Notes: a model not told the origin generated them from the sequence alone. Shown: positions 3,600 through 30,089, counted from the first letter of the stretch. The stretch is DNA of 32,000 nt from Dickeya dadantii NCPPB 898 (GCF_000406145.1 NZ_CM001976.1:3131337-3163336), one strand, 5' to 3'. Numbers and translations are program-made.

Positions 3600-3612
3600 A
3601 CATGTACGTACC
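3600..3612. promoter_or_regulatory. Third copy of the ACATGTACGTACC motif, 32 nt upstream of the 3386-3568 ORF start
   Basis: Exact 13-nt identity with 1191-1203. Confidence 0.35.
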
Positions 3613-3668
3613 ACATAATAGATTAAAATCAAATATTTTTTGAAAGATACAAATATAATATAGTTAAG

Positions 3669-3732: not shown

Positions 3733-3854
3733 TCGGTTGAAAAAAATTAAAAGCAAAATCAACATCATGCATTGACATTGTTAGCTTCTGCCATATAAGT
3801 AAGTATTAAGCATAAGGAATATGCTTTGATTTAATTATATGAAAAGGAGTTCAT

Positions 3855-4232: not shown

Positions 4233-5337
4233 AAACTTCACTGGTGTCGTTCTCTATGCATTAAAACCAGATTCTCACCACAAATGCACACCTTATGTCA
4301 TTGGTGGGAACATGCTGGGGGATATAGCCGGAGATCTGATCGCCGAATTCAATACCACCAAAACGCTTCGCCCGGATGTTACTAAACCCGTCTGGCATAA
4401 TTCACTTCGATTACCGAAAAGCGAAGCGCTGACAGATGCTCAGTGGTCAAAAATTGCTGATAATTACATGTCACGAATGGGCTTCTCTGAAACGCATCTG
4501 AGATGTTATATCCTTCATGACGACGCAGCAGGCCAGCACATCCACATTATTGCCAGCCGTATCGATCTCACTAATGGAAGCCTTTACTTGGGCAAAAATG
4601 AAAACCTCATTAGCACCCGTATAATCCAGCAGCTTGAACGCGACTATTCACTAAGAACCAAAGGACCAGAATTGGTAGCATCACCATCCCCAGCTTCGCC
4701 CTTCCCTCCTTCGCTATCCAGAAAATCCCCGCTCCAGAAACAGATGGGCGCAAAACCAAAGCCTAAAACACTGTCACGTAACGAAGCGATGATGGAGAAG
4801 TATAAAGGAGAACCATCACCAAAATCGGTCATCCAGGAAGCCTTGGAAGAATTACTTGTCGATAAACCATCCACCACTGAATTTGTGACACAGCTTGTGG
4901 CACGAAAGATCATGGCAGTCCCGAATATCGCTTCTACCGGAAAGATGAATGGGTTTTCATTCGAATACCAGGGGATTGCTTTCAAAGCTTCGCAGTTAGG
5001 TAAATGTTATTCCTGGTCCGCCTTACAAAACAGGCTCGACTACCAGCCGGAACGCGACAATGCTTTCCTGCTTGCATTGAAAATGCCCTCAGTCAGTAAG
5101 GCATCGGTTAGCGAAGCTCTTGATATGACCATTGCTATAGATACCCCTGAAATCTTCAAAGCAGACGTTAACACTCCCACCGAAATGCTTACCCTCAATA
5201 AAGATGCCGGTCAGGATAAATACGCTATCACTTATCCCATAGCGCTTCTCTCTGATGCTGATGCTGATGCTGATGCTGATGCTGATGCTGAAGAAGCGTA
5301 TGCAACCGAAGCAGTAAAAGAAAGCTGGTGCAAGTAA
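4201..5337 (+). CDS. Relaxase / mobilization nuclease (MobA/VirD2 superfamily, MOBQ-like)
   Basis: N-terminal KIRRGKNFTGVVLYAL and the histidine triad HDDAAGQHIHIIASRIDL (HxDx4HxH) are present. The start could be 4192 (GTG), 4201 or 4210. The C-terminus is low-complexity with (Asp-Ala)6. Confidence 0.85.
   Translation: MKGMQKIRRGKNFTGVVLYALKPDSHHKCTPYVIGGNMLGDIAGDLIAEFNTTKTLRPDVTKPVWHNSLRLPKSEALTDAQWSKIADNYMSRMGFSETHLRCYILHDDAAGQHIHIIASRIDLTNGSLYLGKNENLISTRIIQQLERDYSLRTKGPELVASPSPASPFPPSLSRKSPLQKQMGAKPKPKTLSRNEAMMEKYKGEPSPKSVIQEALEELLVDKPSTTEFVTQLVARKIMAVPNIASTGKMNGFSFEYQGIAFKASQLGKCYSWSALQNRLDYQPERDNAFLLALKMPSVSKASVSEALDMTIAIDTPEIFKADVNTPTEMLTLNKDAGQDKYAITYPIALLSDADADADADADAEEAYATEAVKESWCK
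5254..5289 (+). repeat. In-frame hexanucleotide repeat (GATGCT)x6
   Basis: Read directly from the sequence. Encodes DADADADADADA in the relaxase C-terminal tail. Confidence 0.95.
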
Positions 5338-5920
5338 CAAAGAAGCACATGTAACCGAAGCGGCAAAAGAAGCTCACCACAGAAAACGCCTCTCTATGAT
5401 TCAGACCGGCTTCAGATGGTTAGAAACCATCCCCTACCTCAACATCATCCTTGGCATGCTAAAAAAACTCAAAATCCCGACACTCAAACGCCCAGGAAAA
5501 CACAACACCATCACTGGCGTGAAGATGATAGAAATTACGGCAACACCAAAAACCACTATCCAGACTCCGCAAAAATCACACTCATCATCATTCCAAATGT
5601 AGGGCTGAGAAGCCGTCCAGCAAGCCTTTCTTCATACAAAAAACACAAGATTAACGATCGTTAATACCGATTTATATTTAATTTATGATAGTTTTTATCT
5701 ATCACAAGTAAACCATCGATCGTTATAAGCGATTTGCTTTGTTTGATCACAACTGTTCAAAATGTAGCTGTTCCTTTTCCCATAATAGACTGATTTAACT
5801 GGTCTATTTACTTATTCAACTAACGATATAGGTTCAGCAATGACAAATTTCGTCTCATACATAGTTCCTGACCTCTTCATACATCGAATATGACTTTCAC
5901 TCAGCTATTAAGGAATTTGT

Positions 5921-6724
5921 ATGAGCCTTTTATTCATGAGACGTTTCTGGATCGGCGTATTGCTTCCTGTGTTTATCGACTGGCTTTTTATGGCAGGTGC
6001 AATTCAGCTTTGGTGGCTCTGGTTACCTATCAGTGCCCCACTGCTCATCTGGGCTTTTTTTGCCTACAACAAAAATAGGAAAGAAGACGCAGATTCCAGA
6101 ATCTGGATCCGCCAACAGTGGGAAGAGAAAATCACTACTGAAAAATTTGAATTTTGCGGTCGCGCATATACGTTTCAGGAAACGCTCTCAGGCACTGTCA
6201 TCAGCTACAACCCGAACAATGACACTATCTGGGTAAAAACAGATGATGGGGATGAGACACAAATTTCCGCGCATGGCCTACCGTTCCGTGAATCGCATCG
6301 TATTAAAAAATACGAATTCAATGGCTATCATGACCATCATTCCTATGCATCATTTCATGATGCACTGATCGTTAATGAAACCACTAAAGAACGACATGTA
6401 AACATGCCGGAAAAATGTTTTATTGTCTTTGGATTAACGACATTGACTCTGCTTTTGTTTATTCGACCTATAGTAAGATTTACTGCTAGTGTCTATAGTT
6501 CTGCTATGCCCGTCCCAAGTTTTTTCCCTGTTACCTTTATCGTAACTAATATTATCTCTGCTGTTTCATTTATTATTTTCCTTTTTGATTTTAAAAATGA
6601 TGATCTATGGGATATCTATTTGTTATCAACACTGGTCTGTCATGTCCTCATCAGATGGTTAAACATCAGGTCTAGCAAGTTTAATATCAAGTTCAATCGT
6701 CTGGTTATTTCATTTACACGTTAA
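5921..6724 (+). CDS. Hypothetical membrane protein (2 N-terminal TM, ~110-aa soluble domain, C-terminal TM bundle)
   Basis: 267 aa. First gene of a three-gene same-strand unit that ends at the 7543-7573 terminator. No family recognised. Confidence 0.55.
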   Translation: MSLLFMRRFWIGVLLPVFIDWLFMAGAIQLWWLWLPISAPLLIWAFFAYNKNRKEDADSRIWIRQQWEEKITTEKFEFCGRAYTFQETLSGTVISYNPNNDTIWVKTDDGDETQISAHGLPFRESHRIKKYEFNGYHDHHSYASFHDALIVNETTKERHVNMPEKCFIVFGLTTLTLLLFIRPIVRFTASVYSSAMPVPSFFPVTFIVTNIISAVSFIIFLFDFKNDDLWDIYLLSTLVCHVLIRWLNIRSSKFNIKFNRLVISFTR

Positions 6725-6760
6725 GACCTAATAATAGTAAATCCTTAAAGGTTTAAATTA

Positions 6761-7135
6761 ATGAAAAAATTTATCATCGTAACATTGGTATCACTCACTC
6801 TCTCTGGATGTTATTCCTTCGGTAATCAGACTCTGAAAAATGTAACGCAGGAAGACGTAAAAGCTAAAATTGTAAAAGGAAAAACCACCAAGTCAGAAGT
6901 ATTAACCGCCTTTGGTGAGCCGGATAAACGTATCACCTCAGATGATGAGGAGAAATGGTCTTATTCTATGCATAACTACCGCAGTAAACCAACATCATAT
7001 ATTCCGATTGTAGGAATACTGACTGGCGGAACGGATATTGAAGAAAAATCAATTCTCATCACGTTTAAAGGTGAAAAAGTCAGCTCTTATGAATTCACTG
7101 CCAGTGCCAGTGAAATGAAACGCGGTCCCTTTTAA
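6761..7135 (+). CDS. Lipoprotein, possibly BamE/SmpA-OmlA-like fold
   Basis: Signal peptide with lipobox LTLSGC. TKSEVLTAFGEPD resembles the BamE-type motif. Confidence 0.7.
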   Translation: MKKFIIVTLVSLTLSGCYSFGNQTLKNVTQEDVKAKIVKGKTTKSEVLTAFGEPDKRITSDDEEKWSYSMHNYRSKPTSYIPIVGILTGGTDIEEKSILITFKGEKVSSYEFTASASEMKRGPF

Positions 7136-7181
7136 ATACTTTTAAATACTTTTAAATTCAGCAATCCTCAAAACGAGAGCC

Positions 7182-7508
7182 ATGATGAATAAAAAACTAT
7201 CCTTAGGTTTATTACTGGTGCTGTCCTATTTTCTCACCGGCTGTGACAGCGAACCATCAGATGCTGATGTATCTAAAGCAATGCAATCTTTTACTGAAGA
7301 GATGAACAAAGGCGCACCGTCTGAATCAGCAAGAGTCGTTTTCAATTCAGCCAAGAAAATCGCATGCAAAGAGAAAGACAGCGACGGCGGTTACAAATGC
7401 ACCGTCGACTACAATGCAAAGATCCCGTTTTTGGGTGAAAGAACATCAACCATGGAGCTTAAGTTCTTTAAATTTGAAGGAAAATGGAAGGTTTCACCGT
7501 CGAAATAA
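7182..7508 (+). CDS. Small lipoprotein
   Basis: Signal peptide with lipobox FLTGC. The mature part is ~85 aa with two Cys. Confidence 0.7.
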   Translation: MMNKKLSLGLLLVLSYFLTGCDSEPSDADVSKAMQSFTEEMNKGAPSESARVVFNSAKKIACKEKDSDGGYKCTVDYNAKIPFLGERTSTMELKFFKFEGKWKVSPSK

Positions 7509-7542
7509 TTGATATGCCATAAACAGCATCAGGGAAAACATC

Positions 7543-7573
7543 AGCCCGTAGTTTCATCGCTACGGGCTTTTTT
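7543..7573 (+). terminator. Rho-independent terminator
   Basis: AGCCCGTAG-tttcatcg-CTACGGGCT followed by TTTTT. Confidence 0.8.
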
Positions 7574-7675
7574 CATCTGCATTACCTTAGACTTGAACTT
7601 AAAGTTTTCGCGGGCAGGACAGAACACAATCAAATCTGACAGGCAGCATTGAGCGAGATGCAGACAGTAGTAGCG

Positions 7676-8788
7676 TTAAGCACTTTCAACGTCATTATGA
7701 TTTTCAATCCAATATTGCCGATGATTTATCAAATGAGTTGTTAACGGCCAGTTTTGCTTATCTTTAGGTAACCTGAGATATCGGCCATCTAACTCTGCAT
7801 ATTCTGTCCCAGCCAACTGTTCTGATATCCTTATTTTCAACTCGATATCAATCCAGAGCAAACCACGGTCAAATAGAGTATGGATGTCCGTTTTCAGTAA
7901 CAGCCCATGCTGAGCACGGGTATGCCAAGCTCCTGCGTAGGGGGTGATATGTGCAGCTTCAAGCAACACTTGGATTGAACAGCCCGTTACTGCGCATTTA
8001 CCCTCATAAGCTTCAATGAGCTTTCGTCTAAATACTGGTTGCCCTTCTCGAATAATGACCTCACGTAGTGCTTTGAGGCGAAAGTCACCTTCATCTTCAG
8101 GCAATTCATTGAATAATTCATCTCTCGCTTCAACTACCATCCGATCTCCTGGCCTTGGGGCGGCAATCTGAATTGGCGTCCTACCATCATCGGCAATATC
8201 CCATATGCCGTGCAGCTCCTGCACATACTGTTCATACCGTGTATTTTGTAGGTTTCCGCTACGAAATAACAAGTCGTATGGGCTACCCTGGTCAGTCTGG
8301 GCGCTTTTTCGGCTACCAAGATATCGATACCGGGAGTTGCTATTGACGGTTAATGCATCCAGTTGAATACGAATCTCGGTCTCTTTCAGGGGGGCGTTGC
8401 TGTTACGGATCCACTTAACAATATTTGTAGCAGAAGCGGAATTTAGTTGTGTCACGGCATACCATACGCGGAGATATTGCGGATAGTGCATTTCTTCAGG
8501 AATTATACCAGGTACATCAACAACATATGTTGAGAAATTATGATGACGCATCCATTCTCCCCACTGGCGGGAATGGGTGCTAATACCTATGCGATGGGGT
8601 TCGCGTTTGCCAATTTCATCATTGAATTCCTGTCGGGAGGGTGCTCGACCGAGTTTCTGATAAAGCTCATCACAGCAGTCCCACACTGCTCGTACTAACG
8701 GGCCCTGTGGGTATCCATCTTTGCTCTGGTTCAAAGTGTTCTCCGTCAACGAACATATCATGAGAATAGCAATATCCAATTCTGACAC
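7676..8788 (-). CDS. HNH endonuclease (C-terminal HNH of the restriction-associated type) with an unrecognised ~260-aa N-terminal region
   Basis: C-terminus reads CAVTGCSIQVLLEAAHITPYAG....HGLLLKTDIHTLFDRGLLWID. This fits the C-x-(V/I)-(T/C)-G...L-(E/D)-A-A-H-I..., N-G-L-L-L..D-x-H-x-L-F-D pattern. GTG start is preceded by GGGGGA. Confidence 0.8.
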   Translation of the reverse strand: MSELDIAILMICSLTENTLNQSKDGYPQGPLVRAVWDCCDELYQKLGRAPSRQEFNDEIGKREPHRIGISTHSRQWGEWMRHHNFSTYVVDVPGIIPEEMHYPQYLRVWYAVTQLNSASATNIVKWIRNSNAPLKETEIRIQLDALTVNSNSRYRYLGSRKSAQTDQGSPYDLLFRSGNLQNTRYEQYVQELHGIWDIADDGRTPIQIAAPRPGDRMVVEARDELFNELPEDEGDFRLKALREVIIREGQPVFRRKLIEAYEGKCAVTGCSIQVLLEAAHITPYAGAWHTRAQHGLLLKTDIHTLFDRGLLWIDIELKIRISEQLAGTEYAELDGRYLRLPKDKQNWPLTTHLINHRQYWIENHNDVESA

Positions 8789-8952
8789 TAAATCCCCCGC
8801 ATAGCATCAGGCGGTTATGAGCGAAAAGCTGACATTCCCATTGTTTTATCTTTACCTAGTAAAAATAATAAACATTTTTACAAATAAAAATTATAAGTTA
8901 CAATGCGTAATGCCTTTGGTTTAAATATTTACACTTGAAAAGGAGTGACATA

Positions 8953-9610
8953 CCGATGAATAAAAACAAGCTTTTCGCACAGCTATCAAAATATTCACTT
9001 GATGCTCAGATTGATGATTTCGAAAAATATATCATCGGAGCAGGCGGCCAAAATAGAGTTGACTTATCGGAATTAAAAAAAGCATATGAAGATGAAAAAA
9101 AAGAATGCTCCAGATGATTACATTAATTACTTAGAAGACTATTATTCAGAGCAATATGATTTCTTAGTTAACATACAACCAAATATTTTTAATAAATCAG
9201 CTTTAGTATCTTTATACTCATGCTTAGAGCACAATCTAAACGACTATTGTAACATCTGCCAAAAAATTGCAAAAACCAATATATCAGTAAGCGATTTTAA
9301 TGGTGATGGCATTCACAAAGCAAAAAGATATTTAACAAAATTAATGGATATAGACTTTGGTCTATCACAAGAATGGCAATTCATGACAGACCTTAACAAG
9401 GTAAGGAATTGCGTAGTTCATGCTAACGGAGACATTAAAAAAATGAATTCAACTGAAACTTTAAAAACCATTATTGATAAAACACCGACTCTTTCACTAA
9501 ATAATGAAAGTAATATAATAATCTCCTTGGATTATTTAAATGATACTATCATCAAAATTAGAAAACTCTTTCAATGGTTATATACACTTCTGAAGCAATC
9601 ATCGAAGTGA
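8953..9610 (+). pseudogene. HEPN-domain (R-N-x3-H) protein gene, split by a frameshift in an A8 run; the downstream part (9086-9610, 174 aa) may still be expressed alone
   Basis: AAGGAG lies 9 nt before ATG 8953. Frame 1 stops at 9117 and frame 2 is open from 9086. Removing one A from A8 (9095-9102) fuses them, reading ..LKKAYEDEKKNAPDDYINYLEDYY... The HEPN motif is NKVRNCVVHANG. Confidence 0.55.
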
Positions 9611-9798
9611 ATACGATTGCATCTCAGTTTGTTAATGGTCTATTTTTGAAAATAGTTACCGATGATACAGGACTGTTCTCCCTTGATTAACATGCGATCA
9701 TGCTAATGATGTCCGTTCATGGCACAGAGCCGCCTGTAAGATTACGCTTAGCTCTGCGCAGCAACTGTGCCAGATCGGGTCTTAGCTAATACATTTCA

Positions 9799-10209
9799 TC
9801 ACAACCGGCAACCACTCTTCCTGACGCTTGCTGAGGCTCTTATCAACTTGTTCGCGTCATACTTCTTTTTCTCATGCACGTAGATCCGTTCTGTTCTTCC
9901 ACCGTTGTTGATGATGAAGCTGATGATAGAGAGAAAGACTTTATTCAGACGGGCTTTATCAATCAAATCATCACTGATTTTCTCAATATGGCTGTAGTAA
10001 GAGAGAAGTAAAAAGCTCAGCACCACTTCTCGGTTTGAAAATGTCAGATTCTCTATGTCCTGCTGGTATTTAATATAAAATCCGGCACAAAAAAGATAAG
10101 ACTGCTCGGTGATTTCTGCTTCTGAAAAGCCCGATTCATCGAGCTTATCAACGAACCTGTCCAGCAACAGCAAATACCTTTCCATTAAACTCATATTTAT
10201 TTTTTTCAT
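9799..10209 (-). CDS. Hypothetical protein
   Basis: 136 aa from MKKINMSLMERY. The 3' end runs into a GC-richer patch and the last ~20 aa look like run-on. No family recognised. Confidence 0.45.
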   Translation of the reverse strand: MKKINMSLMERYLLLLDRFVDKLDESGFSEAEITEQSYLFCAGFYIKYQQDIENLTFSNREVVLSFLLLSYYSHIEKISDDLIDKARLNKVFLSIISFIINNGGRTERIYVHEKKKYDANKLIRASASVRKSGCRL

Positions 10210-10674
10210 AACTATGCATCCTTGCATTTAAATTATTATTAATTGTCATCCTGACAACATATCAATATCATCATTAAATTAAAAATCAAGCAATATGTAA
10301 AAATATATTTACAGCGGAATATTAAATTTACAAACAATATATTCATTGAATGGCGATTAATTAAATGGCTCGTAATTTTGTTTTTATTAAAAAATTCATG
10401 AAATACTTTACAAAAAAGTATAGATATCACATATATTAAAAAACTGATAATATATTTTACAAAATAACAATCGTTAAAAATTAATTCAATTACTCTGATT
10501 CGGGCTGAACCAGCCTAAATAATTTACATTTAGGTATCAGGTGTGCATAATTATAATTAAGTACACCTGAGACTTAATAACGCCCCGCGAAACCTTTAAA
10601 CAAAAGCCCTCATTAAAAACCGTAAAATATTCTGTAAAATATATAGCCTTTATTGATTGAAATTCTTTACACTT

Positions 10675-10872
10675 TTAAAATACATTTCTTTTTTCAATCG
10701 CGGTTAATATCCATTCATCAATTTCATTTTCAACAAATGCGACAGCACGGATACCAATTTTCACAGGTCGGGGGAAACGTTCTTCACTAATAAGGCGATA
10801 GATCCAGGCTTTTCCAAAGCCGGTTTTTCTCATTACTTCGGGGAAACGAATAAGGCGATTCTGGGTATTCAT
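10675..10872 (-). CDS. alpA: AlpA-family transcriptional regulator / excisionase-like protein
   Basis: 65 aa. RLIRFPEVMRKTGFGKAWIYRLISEERFPRPVKIGIRAVAFVENEIDEWI matches the AlpA/phage regulatory protein pattern. Confidence 0.85.
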   Translation of the reverse strand: MNTQNRLIRFPEVMRKTGFGKAWIYRLISEERFPRPVKIGIRAVAFVENEIDEWILTAIEKRNVF

Positions 10873-10957
10873 AGTCTCTCCTCGTTTTTTTAGAAGAGAC
10901 TATATGAAAAGTTCAGGGAAACAAGCGAATTTCAGCACATCCAGAATTCGCGTGTTT

Positions 10958-11812
10958 TTAGTCCTTGTCTGCGAGCGTTATAACATCCGAAACCCGCATT
11001 TCTTTCAAATGGTTGTTCTTGTTAATAAAATGATGAAACTGAATGATGAATGGCTTGCAGACCGCTTTTAACGCCAGTGGTCTATCGGTATCTTTTATTT
11101 GGTTATTCGCTCTGATCCGCCCTTCTTTATCCGCATGGTCATAGAGCAGTGATGAAAGATGATCATCTGACACACGGATATCATGATGCTTTGCCCATAT
11201 TAGTATGTCGATCATCGGGATCAGCCTGTAATTGATAATTTTCTTGATCGTTCCGTAGCCAAAGCGAACAGTATTTGATAAATCTTCTTCAATGCCCCAT
11301 ATTTTACGCCACTGTGGGAGCATCTCTCTCAGAGATCCGATGATTTCTTCGTCAGTGCCACTGGCGAAATCTATCTCAATCATTATGCTGTTTTTAAAAA
11401 ATACAGGTAATGTCTTAGCGATGGGCGTATTTACGAATTCTTTTGTCACACGATACTCATCACTTTTTGCATCCCAGGAAAACAACGAATCATTCATACC
11501 GTGTATACAAAGATCAGCCAGTCTTCCGGTCGTTGTTATAGAGAAGTGTGGGGATGGGAAAAGCATATTGTCTATTGCAAGGAGCTCCATATAGCTATCC
11601 GTAATGAGGAAGGGTTCTCCACTAAAAAGACTTTTGGTATAAATTTCTGCCAGCCTGATTTCAACATCCCCAGGGTCAGATCTAAAAAACAATGACCGCA
11701 TCACTAGCTCGTGATAAAGCCGCCCAAGAGATATGTTTTCAAACTGCCGATAGGTATCGATATTTAGCCATTCTTTGATTTCTTTAATGTCTTTGTCCGA
11801 CAAGTTTTTCAT
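10958..11812 (-). CDS. Hypothetical island protein upstream of alpA (possibly the DUF6387 type; unverified)
   Basis: 284 aa from ATG 11812, which follows AGAGGA by 7 nt. The track's GTG 11908 start adds 32 aa without RBS support. Same strand as alpA with an 85-nt gap. Confidence 0.55.
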   Translation of the reverse strand: MKNLSDKDIKEIKEWLNIDTYRQFENISLGRLYHELVMRSLFFRSDPGDVEIRLAEIYTKSLFSGEPFLITDSYMELLAIDNMLFPSPHFSITTTGRLADLCIHGMNDSLFSWDAKSDEYRVTKEFVNTPIAKTLPVFFKNSIMIEIDFASGTDEEIIGSLREMLPQWRKIWGIEEDLSNTVRFGYGTIKKIINYRLIPMIDILIWAKHHDIRVSDDHLSSLLYDHADKEGRIRANNQIKDTDRPLALKAVCKPFIIQFHHFINKNNHLKEMRVSDVITLADKD

Positions 11813-11967
11813 ATGATCATCCTCTATCAATTGTCCTTTCCTTAAAAAGGGTAGTTGATTCAGGCTGACCAGCGACTTCTCAGTGCCAGTTACCCTCATC
11901 CCTGCCACAACAACGAAAGTTAGCTTAGGTTCTTATTGACATTGGTTTCTAAAAACAGATAGTGTTA

Positions 11968-12012
11968 TTGGTAGATTTGTTGGTAGAAGTTTTGGTGGTC
12001 ATTTTGGTGGTC
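11968..12012 (+). repeat. Four phased TTGGT(A/G)G repeats with exact 12-bp spacing
   Basis: TTGGTAG at 11968 and 11980; TTGGTGG at 11992 and 12004. The last two units are an 11-nt exact tandem, TTTTGGTGGTC. They sit ~60 bp inside the island end. Confidence 0.8.
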
Positions 12013-12041
12013 TTGACATGAAGAGACTTCCGGCTTAGGTT
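12013..12041 (+). promoter_or_regulatory. Candidate outward-facing sigma70 promoter at the island end
   Basis: TTGACA (12013-12018), 17-nt spacer, TAGGTT (12036-12041). Points toward the tRNA fragment and terminator. Confidence 0.3.
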
Positions 12042-12072
12042 ACTTATTAGCCATTTACTGGCAAAGGCGATC

Positions 12073-12088
12073 CCAGTCAGAGGAGCCA
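12073..12088 (+). repeat. attR-type core: 16-nt copy of the tRNA-Asn 3' end (CCAGTCAGAGGAGCCA)
   Basis: Matches the 3' T-stem half, acceptor stem, discriminator and CCA of enterobacterial tRNA-Asn as I recall it (..GGTTCGAGTCCAGTCAGAGGAGCCA). Upstream bases diverge, so there is no complete tRNA here. Confidence 0.7.
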
Positions 12089-12094
12089 AAATTC

Positions 12095-12135
12095 AACGCC
12101 TTGCAATTCGAAAGAATCGCGAGGCGTTTTTGTTT
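12095..12135 (+). terminator. Strong rho-independent terminator (probably the native tRNA-Asn terminator)
   Basis: AACGCCTTGCAATTC-gaaa-GAATCGCGAGGCGTT forms a 15-bp stem with one mismatch and one G-U pair. TTTTTGTTT follows. Confidence 0.75.
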
Positions 12136-12707
12136 ATGAAACACGAATCCCGCCGGTCGGTGCTGACTGCACACCCATCATCAACGGCACCGCGATATCG
12201 GTATCGTAACGTCTGACGAGTGAGCCATGATACTGCTGAGTCATGACTTCTTTTTACGATAGCGCATCATGAAAATCAGAAAAGAACTATCCGATTCGTT
12301 TTAGTCCCTCTACTTAATAATAAAAACAAACGAAATCATTTATTGATGTTATTTTTCATTTTGCCATTTTATTTCTATATACAAATAACGAATTAATAAG
12401 ACGTTGATATTAAAATCATACGGGAAAAGAATCCCTGTACAGTCGTACACAGCCTCCCCTATACTCGCGATAACATACTATTCAACCGATGTTTATTGTT
12501 GCAGCCAGATGACGAAAGCGCGGTGCGACGTGGCGTCACTCTGGCCGTGGCGGCTGTTCTCAGCGCAGCCCGCCTCTCCATCCGGAAAGAAAAAATAACG
12601 ATGGGGACAAGTTAAAAATACCTATTCGCACCACTATTAATTACCGTAATAAACCACAGCTCAGGGATAAGAGCACACCCGTTATTTCTGGATTCAGGGA
12701 GGGAATC

Positions 12708-17826: not shown

Positions 17827-18202
17827 TGCTGCAAATCCTGTTCTGTGTGGTGTCGTCTGTTGTTATGTCATGTCTGAAAATGTTATGTCGTGCCTGAATC
17901 ATGGCCGTACCGGGCGTGATAATCTGCTGCGGCATAGACTCCCAACCGGAGGAAAACTATATAGAAACGCGAGGTAAGACAGAAGGTTACCGATTTTTCC
18001 GTCAAGCAGACAAAATAGAATGAAATAGAGTTTCATAAGAAGAAACAGGTGGTTTAAGGTCATATTCAACCTGCGAAACGTTACTGACGTCTCCATTCGC
18101 AGCCGTTTATAAAAATGTGCCGAAAACTATTTTTTATATTGTCAGTCGATTGAAAAGAAATTCTTATGATTGAAGTATATTCCTGTCAGGAGAAAGCGTG
18201 TG

Positions 18203-22649: not shown

Positions 22650-23801
22650 TTACGGCAACGGTAAATCCTTCAACCGACCGGGGTGTTGTTTGACGATGTC
22701 CCAGGGTATGACGGGCCAGGACTCGCCGGCACAGGGTTGCTGTGCATCTGAAAACGAAGGGGAAAACAGAATGCCTTTCGGCGTCAAAATCCAGTTATTA
22801 TCGTAACCATTCCAGATATCCTGATTGCTGTAATCGCAGTCGTCGCTATTCACCGGAGTACGCATCTGTTCCGGATAATACTGTGTCAGTTGCGTCACCA
22901 GCCAGGCCGGAAGAATTGTATTGTTATACTCACCTTTCTCAATCGTCGAGTTGTCCGGCACCGGGCCATCCCCCACCCACAGCACATCGCTCAGCACCAA
23001 TGGGTGTCCGTCGCTAACGCGTAACCTGATGGGCCAGTTGCCTGAACTGTGGCCTCCGTCGCATATGCTGCTTCGCAGATCCGAGACGCTCAGCACGGAT
23101 GGTGACAGCAACTGAATGTCAACTACCGACATCGCCTCACCCTGATACTGGCTCACCATCATGCAATCATGATAACCAATGACGTTTTGCCATAATAACG
23201 TTTGCAGCGCCGCGTTGAGCCGGCCGCGCTGCGCATCGCTGTAGCCGGATGCAATCTGGAACGTTGTCATACCGGACACCGGCTCCTGCCACCATTCAAT
23301 TTCATGCCCGTTGACCGTCTCTTTTTTCGTCATCGCCAGTACGGTCTGTGCCTGACGCAAATATTCATATGGCGATAATTGATACAACGTCTGCATAAAA
23401 GGCGACAACGCCGCAGGCAAGGCCGCGGGCGACAACGTAACCGGGTAGGTTTTTCCCTTACCGCTGCGCCACTCGCCCTGCCAGTTTTTCTGGTTATCGG
23501 TACGCAGCGTCATCACCGGTTTGCCCGTTTGCGCCTGCTCATCCCACTGCGGTTTACCTTCCCGTAGCACCAGCACGCCCGTTTTGTCCCATTTGCCGCT
23601 CAACGGCAAATCTTTGCGATACTGGCTATAAAAATAGCGTCCCTCCACGCCGTTATCAGAGAACGTCAAGGTCATGACGATACCGGCATTGCCAAGTTTG
23701 CCCTGATACACCGCCACCTCATCCGCCATCGCACAGGTTGTCAGCAACATCAATCCCAGCACACACCCCAAGCGCCTGATATTCTTTATCAACTCGTTCA
23801 T
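22650..23801 (-). CDS. Array paralog P1: secreted two-domain protein, DUF4163/DUF3298 (RsiV-like)-like C-terminal half
   Basis: 383 aa from MNELIKNIRRLGCVLGLMLLTTCAMA-DE (Sec signal). The track's 431-aa version overlaps P2 and has no signal peptide, so I rejected it. Motifs: GRYFY..K.LPLSG, WQGEWR, SPFMQTLYQLSPYEYL, EWWQEP..FQIASGY..LNAAL, CDGGH, LRVSD..LSDVLWV, YPEQ, CDY, PWDIVKQHPGRLKDLPLP. Confidence 0.8.
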   Translation of the reverse strand: MNELIKNIRRLGCVLGLMLLTTCAMADEVAVYQGKLGNAGIVMTLTFSDNGVEGRYFYSQYRKDLPLSGKWDKTGVLVLREGKPQWDEQAQTGKPVMTLRTDNQKNWQGEWRSGKGKTYPVTLSPAALPAALSPFMQTLYQLSPYEYLRQAQTVLAMTKKETVNGHEIEWWQEPVSGMTTFQIASGYSDAQRGRLNAALQTLLWQNVIGYHDCMMVSQYQGEAMSVVDIQLLSPSVLSVSDLRSSICDGGHSSGNWPIRLRVSDGHPLVLSDVLWVGDGPVPDNSTIEKGEYNNTILPAWLVTQLTQYYPEQMRTPVNSDDCDYSNQDIWNGYDNNWILTPKGILFSPSFSDAQQPCAGESWPVIPWDIVKQHPGRLKDLPLP

Positions 23802-23823
23802 ATTCCGTATCCATTCAGCTATA

Positions 23824-23854
23824 GAAAAAGCGCTGCTATCGCCGTGATAGCTGC
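23824..23854 (-). terminator. Possible weak terminator between P2 and P1
   Basis: On the minus strand, GCAGCTATC-acggc-GATAGCAGC (one mismatch) is followed by GCTTTTT. Confidence 0.35.
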
Positions 23855-23860
23855 TTGCGG

Positions 23861-25009
23861 TTACGGCAACGGCAAATCCTTCAGCCGTCCGGGGTGTTGT
23901 TTGACGATGTCCCAGGGCAGGATTTCCCAACCGGAGCCTTTGCACTGCGAAGTCAGATTAGGGGTCATGGTCTGGAAATAGATACCTTTGGATGTCAGGC
24001 TCCAGGGGGCATTCGCCCACACCTCTGACGAACTGTAGTCACAGGCATCCTCGCTCTCGTCATCCGTCGCCGCGGTCTGTTCCGGATAGAGCCGGGCAAA
24101 CTGCGCGGCCAGCCATGTCGGCAAGGTTTCCTGCAAATAGTCATCAGGGATAGCGGAGGCATCCGGCACCGGCGATTCGTCTACCCACATCAAATCAGAC
24201 AGCGTCAGCTCGCTCGCGTCAGAGACACGCAAAATGTGGGGCGATACTTTCATATAACTGTGTGCGCCGCCACACTCTAGAACACTGGATATCACGTAGC
24301 TAATCATCTTCTCTGATAGCAGGCTAATCTTTACCGTATCGTCCGAGTGTTCGCACTGGACAACATCCAGCAACGAGCGCCAAAAACTCTTACGTAGCGC
24401 AGCGTTCAAGGCAGCGAGCTGTTCCGCCGGATAGCCAGAGGTTAACTGAAACATCGACAGTTTAGCGTTCGGTTCCTGCCACCATTCCACGTTATAACCG
24501 TTGACGACGCCTTGCTTGACCATCACCGGTTCAGCCGTTGCACGCAGCAGATAGTCATAAGGCGAGAGCTGGTAGAGCGACTGCATAAAGGGCGATAATC
24601 CGGTTGTCGCTATCGGTGCCACTGGCGACAGCTCAATGGCGAGTGGCTTATCTTGCCCCTGACGCCACTTACCCTGCCAGCCATTCTCGGTAGCGCGTAG
24701 CGTGATGACCGGGCTGCTCGCCGTTTTTTCCTCATCCTCAGTACCGTATTCACTGTCGCTATACGATGTGTACGATTCCCCATCCAGGGTGACGACGCCC
24801 TGCTTGCTGCGCTGACCGTTAATATAGTGAGTCACCCGCTCAGGCGTCACAAAATAGCGGCTCTTCACGCGCCCATCCAACTTAACATCCAGCTCTATCA
24901 CCACTGGCGTTGTTCCCAGCGTGCCGCCATATACCACCGGCGTTGCCTGCGCGTTTCCCGCCAGCAACCCCATCCCCAGAATCCCTGCCATAAAATGGAT
25001 GCTTTTCAT
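23861..25009 (-). CDS. Array paralog P2: secreted two-domain protein, DUF4163/DUF3298-like
   Basis: 382 aa with signal peptide ..LLAGNAQA-TP. Contains CGGAHS, LRVSD..LSDLMWV..PVPD, LYPEQ, CDY and LPWDIVKQHPGRLKDLPLP. Confidence 0.85.
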   Translation of the reverse strand: MKSIHFMAGILGMGLLAGNAQATPVVYGGTLGTTPVVIELDVKLDGRVKSRYFVTPERVTHYINGQRSKQGVVTLDGESYTSYSDSEYGTEDEEKTASSPVITLRATENGWQGKWRQGQDKPLAIELSPVAPIATTGLSPFMQSLYQLSPYDYLLRATAEPVMVKQGVVNGYNVEWWQEPNAKLSMFQLTSGYPAEQLAALNAALRKSFWRSLLDVVQCEHSDDTVKISLLSEKMISYVISSVLECGGAHSYMKVSPHILRVSDASELTLSDLMWVDESPVPDASAIPDDYLQETLPTWLAAQFARLYPEQTAATDDESEDACDYSSSEVWANAPWSLTSKGIYFQTMTPNLTSQCKGSGWEILPWDIVKQHPGRLKDLPLP

Positions 25010-25037
25010 GTAATGTACGATGTCTCTTTATGATCCG

Positions 25038-25061
25038 ATAAAAGCAGCACCGCGGTGCTGC
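25038..25061 (-). terminator. Rho-independent terminator after P3
   Basis: Minus strand GCAGCAC-cgcg-GTGCTGC followed by TTTTAT, 7 nt after the P3 stop. Confidence 0.6.
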
Positions 25062-25067
25062 ATAAGG

Positions 25068-26267
25068 TTAAGGCAGCACCAGCTCACCGTTGCGTACATT
25101 CTCGGCCGAATGACTTTTTATGAATGACCAGGGCAATAACGCCCATGAGTCATAGGTAATTTTACCAATATGGTCATCGGTTGAGATATTGGAATAAAAA
25201 CGCAACCCTTTAGCCGTTGCAAACCAGTTTTTACCAACCTGAACCCAGCCATCAGGTTCAGGGGCTGGATAAGTGTCAGATCGGGCTGCCAGCTCATCCC
25301 GGTGCAAGATCATCAGTTGCTCATACAACCATTTGGGTAGCGCACTATCAAAAGACGGTGACGGGTATTCATCGGCTTCCTTATTCTCCCCTATCGATAA
25401 CAATTGCGACAATGCCACCGGTTTTGCGGTGCGGGTGGAGAGCGTTTGCGGTTTCAGCCAAAATTTTTGCTCGTTGCTGTCACCGGAGCCTTGTCCAGGA
25501 GCATCATCCTCGTACCGAACCATCACCTTACAGTCCCTGTGATATATCTGATTGATATAACTGACCAACGACGCGGAGAGCAGAGTTATCTGAATCTGTT
25601 GTGACAGATAGCCGCCATTATCAACACACGCCTGCTGCTTCAGCATGGTACTCCACCACTCTTGCTGTAAGGTACGGTTCAGCGCCGCCATCGTTTCCGG
25701 TGGATAGCCGCTGACAAACTGAAAAATTTTCACCCGTGTCTGTGGATTCTGCCACCAGGCCAGTCGATATTCCCCCATATCTCTTTCGCCCAGGAACTCC
25801 ACCGGGCGGGTTTGCCATAACAGGTAGTCATAGAGCGACACATCCCGCAGCCCCTGTTTCATCGCTTGTGCGTTATCGTTGGGAATATCAGTGCCGGATA
25901 TCAGCGTCAGGTTTACCGGGAGGCGTTGCCCGTTAGGTTGACGCCACTCGCCTTGCCAGCGCTGTTTTTCTTTATTGGGACGCAACACCATATGGTGTCG
26001 TTTATTCAGTTCTCCATCGCTAATCGAGCTGCCCAGCTGGCTATCCGGTACAATCATCAGCGATTCATCGTCTATTCCCTCAATCCAGGCCGTCAGAGAG
26101 CGGTCTTTATGATCCTGTACATCGAAGAAGCGCCCTGTTGTCGGCCCATCACCGAGCTTTAGCTCCAGCACGACATTAGCATTCCCTATCGTCCCGCGAT
26201 AAACATCCGCCCACGCACATTGAATTAACGCCAGTAGCCCCAGCGCCATAACCGTGATATGTCTCAT
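25068..26267 (-). CDS. Array paralog P3: divergent member of the same secreted family
   Basis: 399 aa with signal ..LIQCAWA-DV and AAGGA RBS. Keeps VYRGTIGN..V.LEL, WQGEWR, LYDYL, WWQNP..FQFVSGYP..LN.TL, LSQLL and LPWSFIKSH. Lacks the CGG(A)H block and the C-terminal Cys pair, and has a different tail (..NGELVLP). Confidence 0.8.
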   Translation of the reverse strand: MRHITVMALGLLALIQCAWADVYRGTIGNANVVLELKLGDGPTTGRFFDVQDHKDRSLTAWIEGIDDESLMIVPDSQLGSSISDGELNKRHHMVLRPNKEKQRWQGEWRQPNGQRLPVNLTLISGTDIPNDNAQAMKQGLRDVSLYDYLLWQTRPVEFLGERDMGEYRLAWWQNPQTRVKIFQFVSGYPPETMAALNRTLQQEWWSTMLKQQACVDNGGYLSQQIQITLLSASLVSYINQIYHRDCKVMVRYEDDAPGQGSGDSNEQKFWLKPQTLSTRTAKPVALSQLLSIGENKEADEYPSPSFDSALPKWLYEQLMILHRDELAARSDTYPAPEPDGWVQVGKNWFATAKGLRFYSNISTDDHIGKITYDSWALLPWSFIKSHSAENVRNGELVLP

Positions 26268-26303
26268 TATCCAATCCTTGCGGTTTATATTTATAACTTA
26301 TAT

Positions 26304-27164
26304 TTATGGCATTACCTGCTGCGTCAGCCGACCGGGGTTGGCCCGCACCAGACGCCACGGCAACACCGCCCACCCACCGTCGCCGCACGTTTTAGGATAA
26401 TACGCCCCTGGATAAAAACGGATGCCCTCTGGTGTCAGTGACCATAAACCCTCATCCCATTCTTCAAATTGGTATGCACAAGACTCGTCATTCATCTGGC
26501 GGGGATAAAGTGCCCTTAATTGCGTTGTGATCCAGTCGATAAGGGTGACCCCGTGGTAAGTATCAAATGACTGGTTGCGCGTGATATCTAAGGGGGGCTT
26601 ACGCAGCATCAGGACATCATCGATCGACAAAGGTCTGGCATCTTGAGTTAACAATGTACTGGCATCGTGAAAGGTGTACGGTGTGTCGCCATTACAGGCG
26701 CTCACCTCTGTTTTCAGATAACTGACCACCGATGGCGTAATCAACGAAAAAGACCACTCAGCGTGATACGCCAATGGAGATTGTCCCTTTTGTGCCTTAG
26801 ACAGCTGCTGATAAGATTCCTGACACGCTTTTTTACGCTCCAGCATCAAGAACATTTCAGCGTTCAGTTTGTTATTGAGCCGGATACGCTGATTGGTCGT
26901 ATAGCCGGAAGCGATTTGTGGGTAGGTAAATCCTGTTAGCGGATCACTCCACCAGATGACGTCGTAACCATTGATATTTTCCTGTTTTGCCACTGTCAGA
27001 TCGGTATTCGTATAACGCTGGTAGGTATCAGGCTCTGACCAATAGAGCCATTGTTTAAACGGCGAAGCATGGGAGGAAGGAGCGGGGACATCGGCAAAAG
27101 CAGAGGTGAACACCATCCCCAAACAGGTAGCCACAATCCTTGCGGTTTTTATTGATAGCATCAT
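26304..27164 (-). CDS. Array paralog P4: short form (signal peptide plus C-terminal domain only; N-terminal module absent)
   Basis: 286 aa with signal ..VFTSAFA-DV. Starts directly at the SPF(K/M)Q..Y block. Keeps NGYDVIWWSDP..PQIASGY..LN.KL, LSIDDVLML, LYPRQM, C.Y, W.LTPEGIRF and GW.VLPWRLVRANPGRL. Confidence 0.8.
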   Translation of the reverse strand: MMLSIKTARIVATCLGMVFTSAFADVPAPSSHASPFKQWLYWSEPDTYQRYTNTDLTVAKQENINGYDVIWWSDPLTGFTYPQIASGYTTNQRIRLNNKLNAEMFLMLERKKACQESYQQLSKAQKGQSPLAYHAEWSFSLITPSVVSYLKTEVSACNGDTPYTFHDASTLLTQDARPLSIDDVLMLRKPPLDITRNQSFDTYHGVTLIDWITTQLRALYPRQMNDESCAYQFEEWDEGLWSLTPEGIRFYPGAYYPKTCGDGGWAVLPWRLVRANPGRLTQQVMP

Positions 27165-27200
27165 ATTACGTAAATAAATTAAGAAAGGAGAAAAGCACCA

Positions 27201-27254
27201 TTCACCTGTTTGTACAAACCGCCACAGGTGAACCCAAAAGACCGTACCATTATA
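27201..27254 (-). promoter_or_regulatory. P4 leader: perfect TATAAT (27249-27254, minus strand), then a 9-bp-stem hairpin (27201-27232) containing the 12-bp perfect palindrome GTTTGTACAAAC (27208-27219)
   Basis: Read directly from the sequence. On the sense strand the hairpin is followed by a U-rich stretch ~35 nt before the P4 ATG. The -35 element is weak. Confidence 0.3.
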
Positions 27255-27297
27255 TCGGTATTACATCCGTATCGCCTTCGCTATCTTACTGATATAA

Positions 27298-28503
27298 TTA
27301 GGGAACCGTGACATATTGAAGACGGCCAGGGTGTTTATTCACAATGCGCCAAGGCACGACTTCCCACCCCTCGTCATCGCATACATCCGTGCCATCCGGC
27401 CGTAGCGGTTGAAAATAAATCCCTTCCGGGGTGAAGGACCAACGGGTGTTGGCCCATGTCTGCGTCGCGGTGTAATCACAGCCTTCACCGGTAGCGCCAG
27501 ATGCGTGGGTCATTTTGGTCGGATACAATTGGGTAAACTGGCTTTTTAACCATTCAGGAAGACGTTCCTGTAAACGCATTTCACCATAGTCATCGCCATT
27601 ATCGTACTCATCGCTCATCACTGGCACCGGAAGATCATCGAGCCAGAACAGATCAGAGAGCAACAGTTCTGGATAGTCCCTAAGAGTCGATGCGTCGTAC
27701 CTGAGCGTTGACGTGTGAGTGAATACTCTGATTTGGGGTTGTTCATCATCCGGACACTGGAATTTTCCCGTCAAGGTATAGCTGACGGCGTTTGGCGACA
27801 ACAAACCAATTTTGACCTTTAGCCCTCCCGCATTGACGCAGGTACTCATGCCAGACAAGGTACGCCAGAACATGTCGCGCAACATTGCATTTAATTGATT
27901 ACGCTGCTCGGCCGAATAACCCGATGCCACCTGAAACATGGAGAAATGGGTAAGCGGGTCTTGCCACCACTCCACCGCGTACTTTCCCATCATTCCTTGT
28001 TTAACCATCTTTGGTTCATATCCCTGCTGGAAAAGGGCATCGTACGTTAATGTGTGATAGACCGTCTGCATAAATGGTGGGGCGCTGGCAACATCACTTT
28101 CTTCAGGAAAAAACTTAACAGGCGACAACACTACCGACACGGGTGCCGCATTGTTTTCACGCCACTCACCGTATAGTCGATTCCCCAATGAACCATGAAG
28201 AATTAATGTTTTTTCCACCCAAGGTGGAGGATCATCCGCACGATTGCCTAATTTCAGCACAATGCCTAATTCATTAACCAAGCCAGAGAGTGGACGAGTG
28301 ACATGTTCAGAAGGGACAAAATAGCGGCTGGTTCTCGCTCTCATCCGATAACTTATCGTCTACAGTTTCTATCACTACTGGCGTTGATTACCCAGCGTTC
28401 CTTTATAGGTACCATGGTCTGTTGGGATGCTGGCCATACCCTTCATACAAACCAAGCCCAGCGCCAGCACCAACATCCTTGAGGTCAATGTTAATAAGTT
28501 CAT
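27298..28503 (-). pseudogene. Array paralog P5: disrupted near the N-terminus by two compensating frameshifts
   Basis: ATG 28503 encodes MNLLTLTSRMLVLALGLVCMKGMASIPTDHGTYKGTLGN, then stops. The family-conserved TPVVIETVDDKLSDESENQ is readable only in another frame (28384-28328). The original frame resumes at ..RYFVPSEHVTRPLSG and runs to 27298. The remaining 348-aa ORF (from 28344) lacks a signal peptide. Confidence 0.75.
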
Positions 28504-28659
28504 ATTAAGTAAATAGATAAGAAAGAAAGCGGATACTATAGCGGAAATGAACTAAGCGCCGTAATCAAAAACAAAACGGCGTCTCGTTTTATACGCGAGG
28601 GGAACGAACCTTGACTCCCCGGCCGGATATATCGCAAGCCGGGGTATACAGCGTAACAC

Positions 28660-29846
28660 TCAGGGCAACGGCAAATCCTTCAGCCGTCCGGGGTGTTGTT
28701 TCACCACGCTCCACGGCACTACCGCCCAGGCTGCATCATCACAAACACTGTCGGATTCAGGAAAGGTCGGGTGGAAAAGGATGCCTTTGGCGGTCAGCGT
28801 CCAGGTCGAATACTGCCAGCGGTCTGGTTCACGATAATCACACTGCGTATCACCCCAGGCACCTTTTATGGTCTTCGCCATCTCAGCCGGATACATCGAC
28901 GAAAGCTGTTCAACCAGCCAGGCTGGAAAAATATCGCCCCTGTCATCTTTAGATTCCGCCACCTCATCCGGTACGGGTGATTCATGAACCCAAAGTAGAT
29001 CGGATAACGCCATACTCTTCGCATCACTCACCCGCAGATTGGCGCTGCGCATACCGGAGGATGCCCCATCCCGCCACAGAACATACTTCCGGAGATGGTG
29101 TAACTGACCGCCCGGGGAAACAACTGGCTAATCTGCATCTCTTCGGTGTATTTCCCTTGTTCTGGATTCGTTCCCACTATACAGCGGTAATGATTCAACA
29201 CCTCCTGCCACAGCTCCTTACGCAGCGCCGTATTCAATCCCGCCAGCTGTTCTGCCGAATAACCGCTGCGTAACTGAAACGTCGTCATGCCGGACAGCGG
29301 ATCTCGCCACCATTCCACGCTGTATCCATTCACGTTTTCCTGCTTCGTCATCACCGGTTCGGCCCCTTCATGCCGCAGGTATTCATAGCGTGAATGTTGA
29401 TACGCCTGCTGCATAAACGGCGATGCTGTCGCAGGCAGTTCGGTGACCAGCGACAGCACCACCGGGTAGGCTTTGCCTTTGTCGTTGCGCCACTCGCCCT
29501 GCCAGGTTTTTTGATCGCGGCTGCGCAGCACTATCACCGGTATCGAATCTTTGCCAGCCAGCGCTTGTTGGTCATCCATAGCATCATCGCCTTCCGATAG
29601 CACCAGATTGCCCTGCGCATCCCGCGAGCCGGATAATGGAATATCCTTGCGGTATTTAGTATAGAAATAACGTCCGCTAATACTCCGGCTTCCCGGCTGA
29701 TTGGGGTCGTTATTCAGTTCCACCCCGATGGCTGTATTACCTATCGTGCCGCGATAAACGGGAAAATCATCGTCAGCCTTAGCAACCCCTGCCAGAAAAA
29801 CGACGCCCAGCGCGACTATCCTTGAGGCTAATGTGAATAAGTTCAT
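28660..29846 (-). pseudogene. Array paralog P6/7: one gene split by an apparent 1-nt deletion in the CGG..H-S-S-G block
   Basis: The 29846-29028 ORF holds the signal peptide, N-terminal domain and first part of the C-terminal domain, ending ..SMFCGGMGHPPVCAAPICG*. The 29052-28660 ORF continues with MRSANLRVSDAKSMALSDLLWVHESPVPD...KQHPGRLKDLPLP. Adding one base near 29060-29063 restores GHSSGMRSANLRVSD (compare P1 GGHSSGNWPIRLRVSD). Confidence 0.8.
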
Positions 29847-30089
29847 GTTAACTATATGAATAAGAAAGGGAGTGGAGACTATAATTGAACTACTGCATTT
29901 CCACTAATCATAACGAATAACCGCCTCAGTAAATAAGCGCACATTGAATACTCCGATGATGCTCACCCATCACTCAATGGCATTTTCTCCTCCACGCTCT
30001 ATGCTATGACGAGTCAGGGACAAACGGAGACGCGGTGTGCGCCGACGTTATCCTGGTGATTTTCTTTTCATACCAAAAAGGACAACACC

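Follow-up and report, generated by a model that had tools for sequence, protein, structure and literature searches.

A tandem array in Dickeya dadantii that is probably a genus-specific expansion of an otherwise single-copy family of exported, DUF4163/DUF3298-like binding proteins

Of the proteins found to have a DUF4163/DUF3298 two-domain body, only RsiV, the anti-sigma-V factor of Bacillus, Clostridioides and Enterococcus, has been characterised biochemically; it binds and inhibits lysozyme at a 1:1 ratio by inserting loops into the lysozyme active site (PMC5014341). Here we describe six paralogous genes, G1 to G6, that lie head-to-tail on the minus strand at positions 22650-29846 of a 32,000-nucleotide stretch of the D. 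dadantii NCPPB 898 chromosome (GCF_000406145.1, NZ_CM001976.1:3131337-3163336; hereafter the window). Their products have this body in common with the RsiV ectodomain (5JEN; Foldseek E=1e-4, prob 1.00) and, like RsiV, would be extracytoplasmic and non-enzymatic. The analysis indicates that the locus probably arose by tandem expansion, in Dickeya alone, of a family that is otherwise single-copy and whose members are Sec-exported binding proteins, stabilised by disulfides and probably without enzymatic activity.

The array differs from RsiV in several respects. Its proteins, which are ~10% identical to RsiV, have a cleavable signal peptide in place of the sigma-binding domain and transmembrane anchor and add an N-terminal calycin-like barrel and a Cys-rich C-terminal extension; the array is a tandem in a Gram-negative host, and no extracytoplasmic function (ECF) sigma gene (sigV) is present in its flanks. 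The best structural matches are the solved DUF3298 proteins 3CYG (Fervidobacterium nodosum), 3S5T/BF2082 (Bacteroides fragilis) and 4E72/PA4972 (Pseudomonas aeruginosa), at E=7e-6 to 5e-3. Two of these (3CYG and 3S5T) are also the only significant profile-to-PDB sequence matches. The solved proteins have the xGGAHx ... L.L.D motif in common with the family but are ~200-265 amino acids (aa) long and lack both the N-terminal barrel and the two disulfides. The lysozyme inhibitors Ivy, MliC/PliC, PliI and PliG resemble the array proteins in being Sec-exported, small to medium in size, non-enzymatic and encoded by isolated genes without partners; however, no array protein matched any of them in Pfam or NCBIfam. 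Gram-negative periplasmic lysozyme inhibitors are typically encoded as stand-alone genes, MliC/PliC is an eight-stranded beta-barrel, and Ivy, MliC/PliC, PliI and PliG are not known to occur in 6-7-copy arrays. Another parallel is the four-paralog island of PSMB (RhiA-like) proteins in Pectobacterium parvum, likewise a lineage-specific tandem of non-enzymatic binders in soft-rot Pectobacteriaceae with strain-variable copies, but the PSMB fold, a ~209-aa beta-sandwich, is unrelated, and PSMB has been shown to bind solanidine and to contribute to virulence (PMC13490719). Within the DUF4163/DUF3298 superfamily, the array proteins form a separate branch with three modules that no Pfam model covers over its full length, and no published function was found for this branch in the literature. 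The locus is not an RsiV-type anti-sigma system, not a member of the Ivy, MliC, PliI or PliG families, and not demonstrably a type VI secretion system (T6SS) immunity island.

The six genes were delimited by open reading frame (ORF) listing and alignment (Table 1). Four of the six (G3-G6) are intact, and G1 and G2 are frameshifted pseudogenes. Pairwise identity among the paralogs is 24-47%, and no further array copy was found elsewhere in the window by tblastn. Chance ORFs or an artefact were ruled out by the homologs, a dN/dS ratio (omega) below 1, confident folds and evidence of transcription. Exact look-up of five tested array proteins returned D. dadantii hypothetical proteins. A preliminary description made from the sequence had proposed six head-to-tail minus-strand paralogs of deep divergence, with a series of shared motif blocks, two decayed members, one domain-truncated member and housekeeping flanks. 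The arrangement, the divergence and the motif blocks were all confirmed, as were the decayed members (one frameshift in G1 and two in G2, by tblastn to intact orthologs) and the ordinary chromosomal genes on both sides, whereas the supposedly truncated member, G3, proved to be a conserved short form, as described below.

Single-sequence scans of the window proteins against Pfam, NCBIfam and PADLOC gave nothing significant. No window protein matched DUF3298 (PF11738) at E<=1, two of 24 relatives did so at E>=0.02, and no window protein matched PdaC/DUF4163 (PF13739). The PF13739 model was matched at E<=0.01 by 6 of 55 distant family members, one of which (P0132) scored 29.8 against a gathering cut-off of 29.1; as judged from these profile matches, the PF13739 link of the window proteins is transitive via distant homologs, not direct. 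An AlphaFold2 model of G5, built from a 24-sequence alignment, reached a predicted local distance difference test score (pLDDT) of 86.4 and a predicted template modelling (TM) score of 0.82. The five best Foldseek PDB matches of this model were all solved DUF3298/DUF4163 proteins, namely 3CYG chains A and B (7e-6 and 1e-5), chains C and A of the RsiV-lysozyme complex 5JEN (1e-4) and BF2082/3S5T (5e-4), with PA4972/4E72 at rank 8 (5e-3); target-normalised TM-scores against the solved DUF3298 members were 0.39-0.53. A profile of the 55-member distant family also detected 3CYG (E=2.5e-5) and 3S5T (E=1.3e-3) among PDB sequences, with the family motif CGGAHPD...LtLEDvlW aligned with tGGAHG...LkLyDi of 3CYG and likewise with the 3S5T motif; a profile of close relatives gave 3CYG at E=0.27, which is not significant. 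One UniRef entry in the G6 cluster bears the name 'DUF3298 domain-containing protein'. Model and profiles support assignment of the predicted C-terminal body to the DUF3298/DUF4163 (RsiV-ectodomain) fold at the superfamily level. The preliminary description had called the proteins DUF4163/DUF3298-like and had proposed a Pfam search and structural modelling as checks: the fold stood, with the RsiV-lysozyme complex among the top matches of the G5 model, but direct Pfam membership did not, none of the window proteins reaching a threshold.

The N-terminal module, when modelled alone, gave a pLDDT of 91.5 and eight consecutive strands forming an up-and-down antiparallel beta-barrel. Its nearest structures were a de novo barrel, FABP4/myelin P2, bradavidin/rhizavidin and an odorant-binding protein; these matches had TMq values of 0.53-0.65, yet weak Foldseek E-values of ~0.02, and are to be read as fold-level resemblance only. 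MliC/PliC did not appear among the top 50 PDB matches of the module. On this model, the module is a separate calycin-like barrel with no detectable homolog; its separateness had been recognised before, its calycin-like barrel nature had not. The architecture of a full-length array protein is a cleavable signal peptide followed by the eight-stranded calycin-like barrel and an alpha/beta body that is PdaC/DUF4163-like plus DUF3298-like.

All six proteins have a positively charged hydrophobic N-terminal leader, and the signal peptides, called by eye, end in AxA except in G2, where the site is GMA; the leader noted earlier for every member was seen in all six, whereas the AxA site noted with it is absent from G2. 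The mature proteins are acidic, with isoelectric points of 4.7-5.4. The four Cys residues, which had been noted as fitting disulfides, are near-invariant across the family, being retained in 51 of the 55 distant members. Because the Cys disappear in pairs (CCxx or xxCC), two disulfides are suggested, C219-C246 and C323-C356 in G5 numbering. Among single-copy members, conservation is good at CGGAHP(D) and L.LED, and GGAH is strict in the single-copy Pseudomonas outgroups; in the window it is intact only in G5, G6 having DGGH and G1-G4 lacking the motif.

An exhaustive profile search for the family outside the window yielded 2,040 representative clusters at E<=1e-3 and 269 at E<=1e-30, most members being 360-400 aa long and spanning the full profile. 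A word-indexed homolog search, with 21-23 clusters, under-samples the family, and scans of GTDB and of metagenomes returned four and six loci, respectively, Dickeya genomes being apparently sparse or masked in both. The gene is single copy in all 14 non-Dickeya loci inspected, which came from Aquipseudomonas alcaligenes, Aeromonas lacus, a Rhodanobacter metagenome-assembled genome, Pseudomonas abieticivorans, Pseudomonas sp. TWP3-2, a Chitinophagaceae isolate and several metagenomic contigs. The neighbours at these loci varied, including recBCD with rtcB, a gene resembling diaminopimelate epimerase, mraZ with the dcw cluster, prfB with lysS, ABC-transporter auxiliary genes with VanY, SMC, and TauE. 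No recurring partner gene and no ECF sigma, effector, VgrG, PAAR, Hcp or Rhs gene adjoined the family gene in the 14 loci, and no Tae, Tge, Tle, VgrG, PAAR or Rhs neighbour was present at the 14 non-Dickeya and six Dickeya loci, a small sample relative to ~2,000 clusters. The absence of partner genes asserted in the preliminary description was thus borne out both in the window and in the 14 loci, while the association of homologs with T6SS effectors that it had suggested looking for was not found. It had also considered that homologs might always be single-copy within conserved metabolic operons; they were single-copy at all 14 non-Dickeya loci, but their neighbours share no theme. As a separate observation, two distant members, P0064 (residues 397-484) and P0142 (residues 289-371), have a C-terminal SecDF P1-head-like domain (PF22599; E=2e-6 and 5e-4, respectively). 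The SecDF P1-head is a periplasmic domain that normally contacts translocating proteins, and in P0064 and P0142 it is fused to the family protein.

Tandem arrays, with 2-7 copies, were found only in Dickeya, where a comparison across strains, as earlier proposed, gave 0 to 7 copies at the locus (Table 1). In the arrays with both flanks covered (L005, L006, L013 and L014), the copies always lie between genes for a flavin mononucleotide (FMN) reductase and an SBP_bac_3 amino-acid-binding protein, and the window flanks are 97.7-98.8% identical to those of D. dadantii CP110362.1. The D. undicola locus retains a relic of ~54 nucleotides of the 3' end of the last gene, 94% identical to the G5 and G6 3' ends, and by this alignment is a clean deletion of the whole array. 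In D. dadantii CP110362, the fusion at L005 7692-9941 joins a G5-type copy to a type absent from the window, the junction reading ...VKQHPGRLKDL followed directly by LGVVTNTTDAEPQLF..., with the stop codon, spacer and second signal peptide deleted; fusion-like proteins of 625-750 aa also occur in D. zeae and other D. dadantii strains. In a neighbor-joining tree, all Dickeya copies form one clade against the Pseudomonas outgroups and fall into seven paralog types, each found in more than one species, of which one is short (G3/L013_2) and one is absent from the window. The paralog types are common to species, and therefore the tree places the duplications before the split of the Dickeya species; the present differences in content are best read from the sequences as differential loss, fusion and pseudogenisation, lineage by lineage. 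In CP110362, but not in the window, two small opposite-strand genes lie between the FMN-reductase gene and the array (L005 6569-7551): a gene for a 206-aa DUF3885 protein and an ORF of 117-121 aa that carries no annotation. PADLOC and the DUF3885 literature were uninformative about both.

Nei-Gojobori dN/dS values between orthologs were 0.18-0.33 for the array genes and 0.00-0.11 for two flanking genes. By this measure, the array genes are constrained, yet three- to five-fold more relaxed than the flanks, a pattern that indicates relaxed purifying selection and not an obvious arms race. Within D. dadantii, the G3, G4 and G6 orthologs are 99-100% identical (G3 99.6-100%, G4 99.2-99.7%). G5 occurs as two alleles that are ~82% identical, and a replacement of the allele by recombination is proposed because its dS against the D. 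dadantii CP110362 allele (0.335) is far above the 0.02-0.07 of the flanks. The alignment of G2 (27298-28344) with P0043, an intact ortholog, showed long identical stretches and substitutions clustered at about residues 150-265, in the DUF4163-like region, which suggests gene conversion or localised diversification.

The individual genes differ in their state of preservation. The G1 frameshift lies at the CGG(A)H motif and leaves ORFs of 272 aa (29846-29028) and 130 aa (29052-28660); in tblastn with the intact D. fangzhongdai ortholog L006_1, the matching frame is +1 up to the motif and +3 beyond it, identity being 70-74% in either part, and the signal peptide is read as MNLFTLASRIVALGVVFLAGVAKA with DDD following the cleavage site. 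In G2, a signal-peptide remnant, MNLLTLTSRMLVLALGLVCMKGMA..., runs into stop codons, ~25 N-module codons are out of frame, and the frame is picked up again as a 348-aa ORF (28344-27298). These lesions were seen by alignment to P0043, which is the 389-aa ortholog of another D. dadantii strain, and intact 389-aa versions are present in other D. dadantii strains. The G3 ortholog in another Dickeya array, L013_2, is also short (50% identity), which ruled out an accidental truncation and leads us to regard G3 as a conserved short subtype. G4 lacks the second Cys pair as well as the GGAH motif and has a 16-residue insertion after the second Cys. G6 is the paralog nearest the single-copy homologs outside Dickeya (39-40% identity). 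The longest G6 ORF (22650-23945) encodes 431 aa from a GTG start and overlaps the 3' end of G5 by 85 nucleotides; this length is annotated for Dda3937_01855 of strain 3937, while RefSeq versions have 383 aa. The 431-aa form is probably an over-extended annotation, because translation from the internal ATG at 23801 yields 383 aa that begin with a proper signal peptide. The label 'Lipoprotein' on the Ech1591 ortholog in UniProt was considered for G6 and rejected, as LTTC has Thr at position -1 and does not fit a lipobox; an AMA/D signal-peptidase I site follows LTTC.

Table 1. Array genes and associated features in the window, and state of the locus in other Dickeya genomes and contigs
Feature	Position	Strand	Description
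G1	28660..29846	-	First array gene; ~392 aa reconstructed; pseudogene with one frameshift
G2	27298..28503	-	Pseudogene; two frameshifts in N-terminal module; intact orthologs 389 aa
G3	26304..27164	-	Intact short form, 286 aa; signal peptide then DUF4163/DUF3298-like half; no N-terminal barrel
G4	25068..26267	-	Intact, 399 aa; most divergent paralog; orthologs L013_3 and L013_5
G5	23861..25009	-	Intact, 382 aa; sole window copy with canonical CGGAH; the protein modelled
G6	22650..23801	-	Intact, 383 aa counted from MNELIKN; last array gene
G4-G5 spacer (58 bp) hairpin	25044..25061	-	Terminator-like GC hairpin and T-run (GCAGCACCGCGGTGCTGC TTTTATCGGA); consensus match only
G5-G6 spacer (59 bp) hairpin	23835..23851	-	Terminator-like; consensus match only
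Hairpin and T-rich tail 3' of G6 stop codon	22588..22611	-	Likely array terminator
G1/FMN-reductase divergent intergenic region	29847..30089	.	Presumed primary promoter region, inferred from strain 3937 transcription start site
D. undicola 2B12 locus (L004)	L004 9995-10088		~40 bases where the 7.3-kb array would be
D. dadantii CP110362 locus (L005)			In-frame paralog fusion (749-aa ORF), G6 ortholog and two unrelated small genes
D. fangzhongdai locus (L006)			Three intact copies
Dickeya genome GCA_000406285.1 (L013) and Logan contig (L014)			Seven copies
Metagenomic Dickeya-like contig (L018)			Three copies
D. dadantii 3937 locus			Four annotated genes, Dda3937_01852-01855

On one side, the array is flanked by genes for a LysR regulator, an aminotransferase and an SBP_bac_3 binding protein, and on the other side by FMN reductase, nirE/cobA and nasA genes. 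The GC content and the GC content at third codon positions (GC3) of the array (GC3 0.51-0.66) are lower than those of the flanking genes (GC3 0.66-0.78). In strain 3937, the array homologs form transcription unit 1363, with a primary transcription start site 55 nucleotides upstream of the first start codon, two internal start sites and a transcript end mapped 28 nucleotides past the last stop codon; Nanopore data validated the unit, co-transcription being scored for its three pairs of adjacent genes as validated, low signal and validated (PMC9239193, including its Table S1A). A sigma-70 promoter scan gave matches at chance level, and no convincing KdgR box was found upstream of the array. Elsewhere in the window, a KdgR-box-like sequence, AATGAAATAGAGTTTCATA, occurs at 18019-18037 between the methyl-accepting chemotaxis protein (MCP) and peptidase S66 (mccF-like) genes, with two mismatches to the consensus. 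No mention of Dda3937_01853-01857 was found in the main text of the literature, and array genes are not listed in the supplementary tables of the chicory transposon sequencing (Tn-seq; PMC6637903) and auxin RNA-seq studies.

We infer that the array proteins act by binding, and the first-ranked though tentative reading, drawn by analogy, is that they are periplasmic inhibitors or decoys for incoming peptidoglycan hydrolases, with the paralogs covering different targets. It was ranked first because RsiV is the sole biochemically known member of the fold that was found and because lysozyme inhibitors are typically stand-alone genes. The exported proteins would reside in the periplasm and would bind and inhibit incoming envelope-attacking proteins stoichiometrically. 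Lysozyme-like peptidoglycan hydrolases of hosts or competitors would be the likeliest targets, because RsiV blocks the lysozyme active site; each divergent paralog might then cover a different target, and in this Ivy, MliC and PliG, which are stand-alone inhibitors, would be a closer parallel than toxin-linked immunity genes. The lack of any catalytic-family match in Pfam, NCBIfam or PADLOC and the acidity of the mature proteins are consistent with inhibition. If an inhibitor function is true, the array would represent a fifth Gram-negative lysozyme-inhibitor family and would help to explain envelope defence in plant and insect hosts. It is unlikely, as a more specific proposal, that the array is an RsiV-homologous inhibitor panel in which each type is directed at another hydrolase class (plant, insect or protist lysozymes, or competitor muramidases) and which constitutes a new Gram-negative lysozyme-inhibitor family, with the ~2,000-cluster single-copy family as its ancestral form.

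Several points weigh against the hydrolase-inhibitor reading. A hydrolase ligand is proposed by analogy with RsiV, and for the loops through which RsiV contacts lysozyme (residues 163-171 and 255-261) no counterparts could be assigned in the array proteins. The fold does not in itself imply lysozyme binding, because 3CYG, BF2082 and PA4972 have no known function. The near-identity of the G3, G4 and G6 orthologs within D. dadantii, together with an omega well below 1, gives no clear arms-race signature. CGGAHP, the most conserved motif of the family, is eroded in most Dickeya paralogs, which could reflect a shift from the ancestral function. The modelled calycin-like N-module would be equally compatible with small-molecule binding, and the final location may be the periplasm or, through the type II secretion system, the outside of the cell.

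The small-molecule aspect is taken further by an alternative that is rather unlikely, namely that the exported proteins bind small molecules or host factors in the service of plant or insect colonisation, sequestering or sensing plant defence metabolites, lipids or other ligands via the barrel, the DUF3298 body or both, with the panel broadening the ligand range. The nearest structures of the N-module are ligand-binding calycins, but these weak matches reflect a generic fold, not homology, and the short form G3 is conserved despite missing the barrel. A tandem family of ligand binders with a virulence role has a precedent in the unrelated PSMB proteins, and the N-terminal DUF4163 domain of RsiV resembles Mycobacterium tuberculosis Rv1980c (PDB 2HHI; PMC5014341). 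The expansion is confined to a plant-pathogen genus and varies in copy number between strains, and the literature names DUF3298 alongside Mpt64, a secreted host-membrane-binding protein. Rv1980c is, we presume, the same protein as Mpt64. On the other hand, no link to virulence regulons was found, the search for a KdgR box upstream included, and the Tn-seq supplement does not list the array genes.

It also seems doubtful that the family is an ordinary housekeeping envelope protein, concerned for example with peptidoglycan association or envelope assembly, that was duplicated by chance in Dickeya to give a largely redundant array drifting to loss. The family has a wide distribution: it is present as one copy in many Proteobacteria and extends to Chitinophagaceae and Deinococcus. 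It often adjoins core genes (mraZ/dcw, prfB-lysS, recBCD), but no pathway is implied by this, because the gene neighbourhood is not conserved between genomes. The loss of the whole array in D. undicola, the decay of two of the six window copies, the low expression in strain 3937 (baseMean of 137 for Dda3937_01852; PMC9458453) and the presence of a PdaC-type domain, by Pfam name, in a peptidoglycan deacetylase are all in line with such a role. Seven paralog types kept under purifying selection since before Dickeya speciation are, however, hard to square with pure redundancy. Even if the array proteins are not inhibitors, the locus would still be a clean case of birth-and-death evolution in an exported binding-protein family, and the 0-7-copy array, with all copies in one locus of an important soft-rot pathogen, is a compact genetic handle.

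The preliminary description had favoured an orphan immunity array, in which paralogs descended from genes for immunity to effectors that act in the periplasm, of T6SS or other origin, would guard against non-kin toxins. Orphan immunity islands do show a similar pattern, with copies amplified in tandem, deeply diverged, in part fused or decayed, and variable in content between strains. The proteins are exported, no catalytic signature was detected in them, and the CP110362 locus has also gained the unrelated DUF3885 gene and 117-aa ORF. This origin is nevertheless quite improbable: none of the 14 non-Dickeya loci has an adjoining effector, VgrG, PAAR, Hcp or Rhs gene, no effector or T6SS gene is present in the 32-kb window, the single-copy homologs occur in varied neighbourhoods, many beside core genes, and no literature was found that ties DUF3298 or DUF3885 to immunity. 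That the proteins have enzymatic activity at a site so far unrecognised, built for instance around the His and Asp of CGGAHPD ... LEDxLW, draws on the conservation of CGGAHP(D) and L.LED in single-copy members but is very improbable, as the motif is gone in most Dickeya paralogs that are still under purifying selection, no catalytic family was matched in Pfam or NCBIfam, and the solved homologs are non-enzymatic or uncharacterised.

At the start of the window, positions 1-12650 form a low-GC block (29-46% GC vs 57-65% in the remaining window). The block contains genes for an 8xMP octameric membrane protein (1705-2415), a MobA/VirD2-type relaxase (4192-5337), an HNH endonuclease (7676-8788) whose match to DUF7669 is weak and below threshold, and a DUF6387 protein (10958-11908), as well as several ORFs without a Pfam match. 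It resembles an integrated island of mobilisable or defence type and is unrelated to the array.

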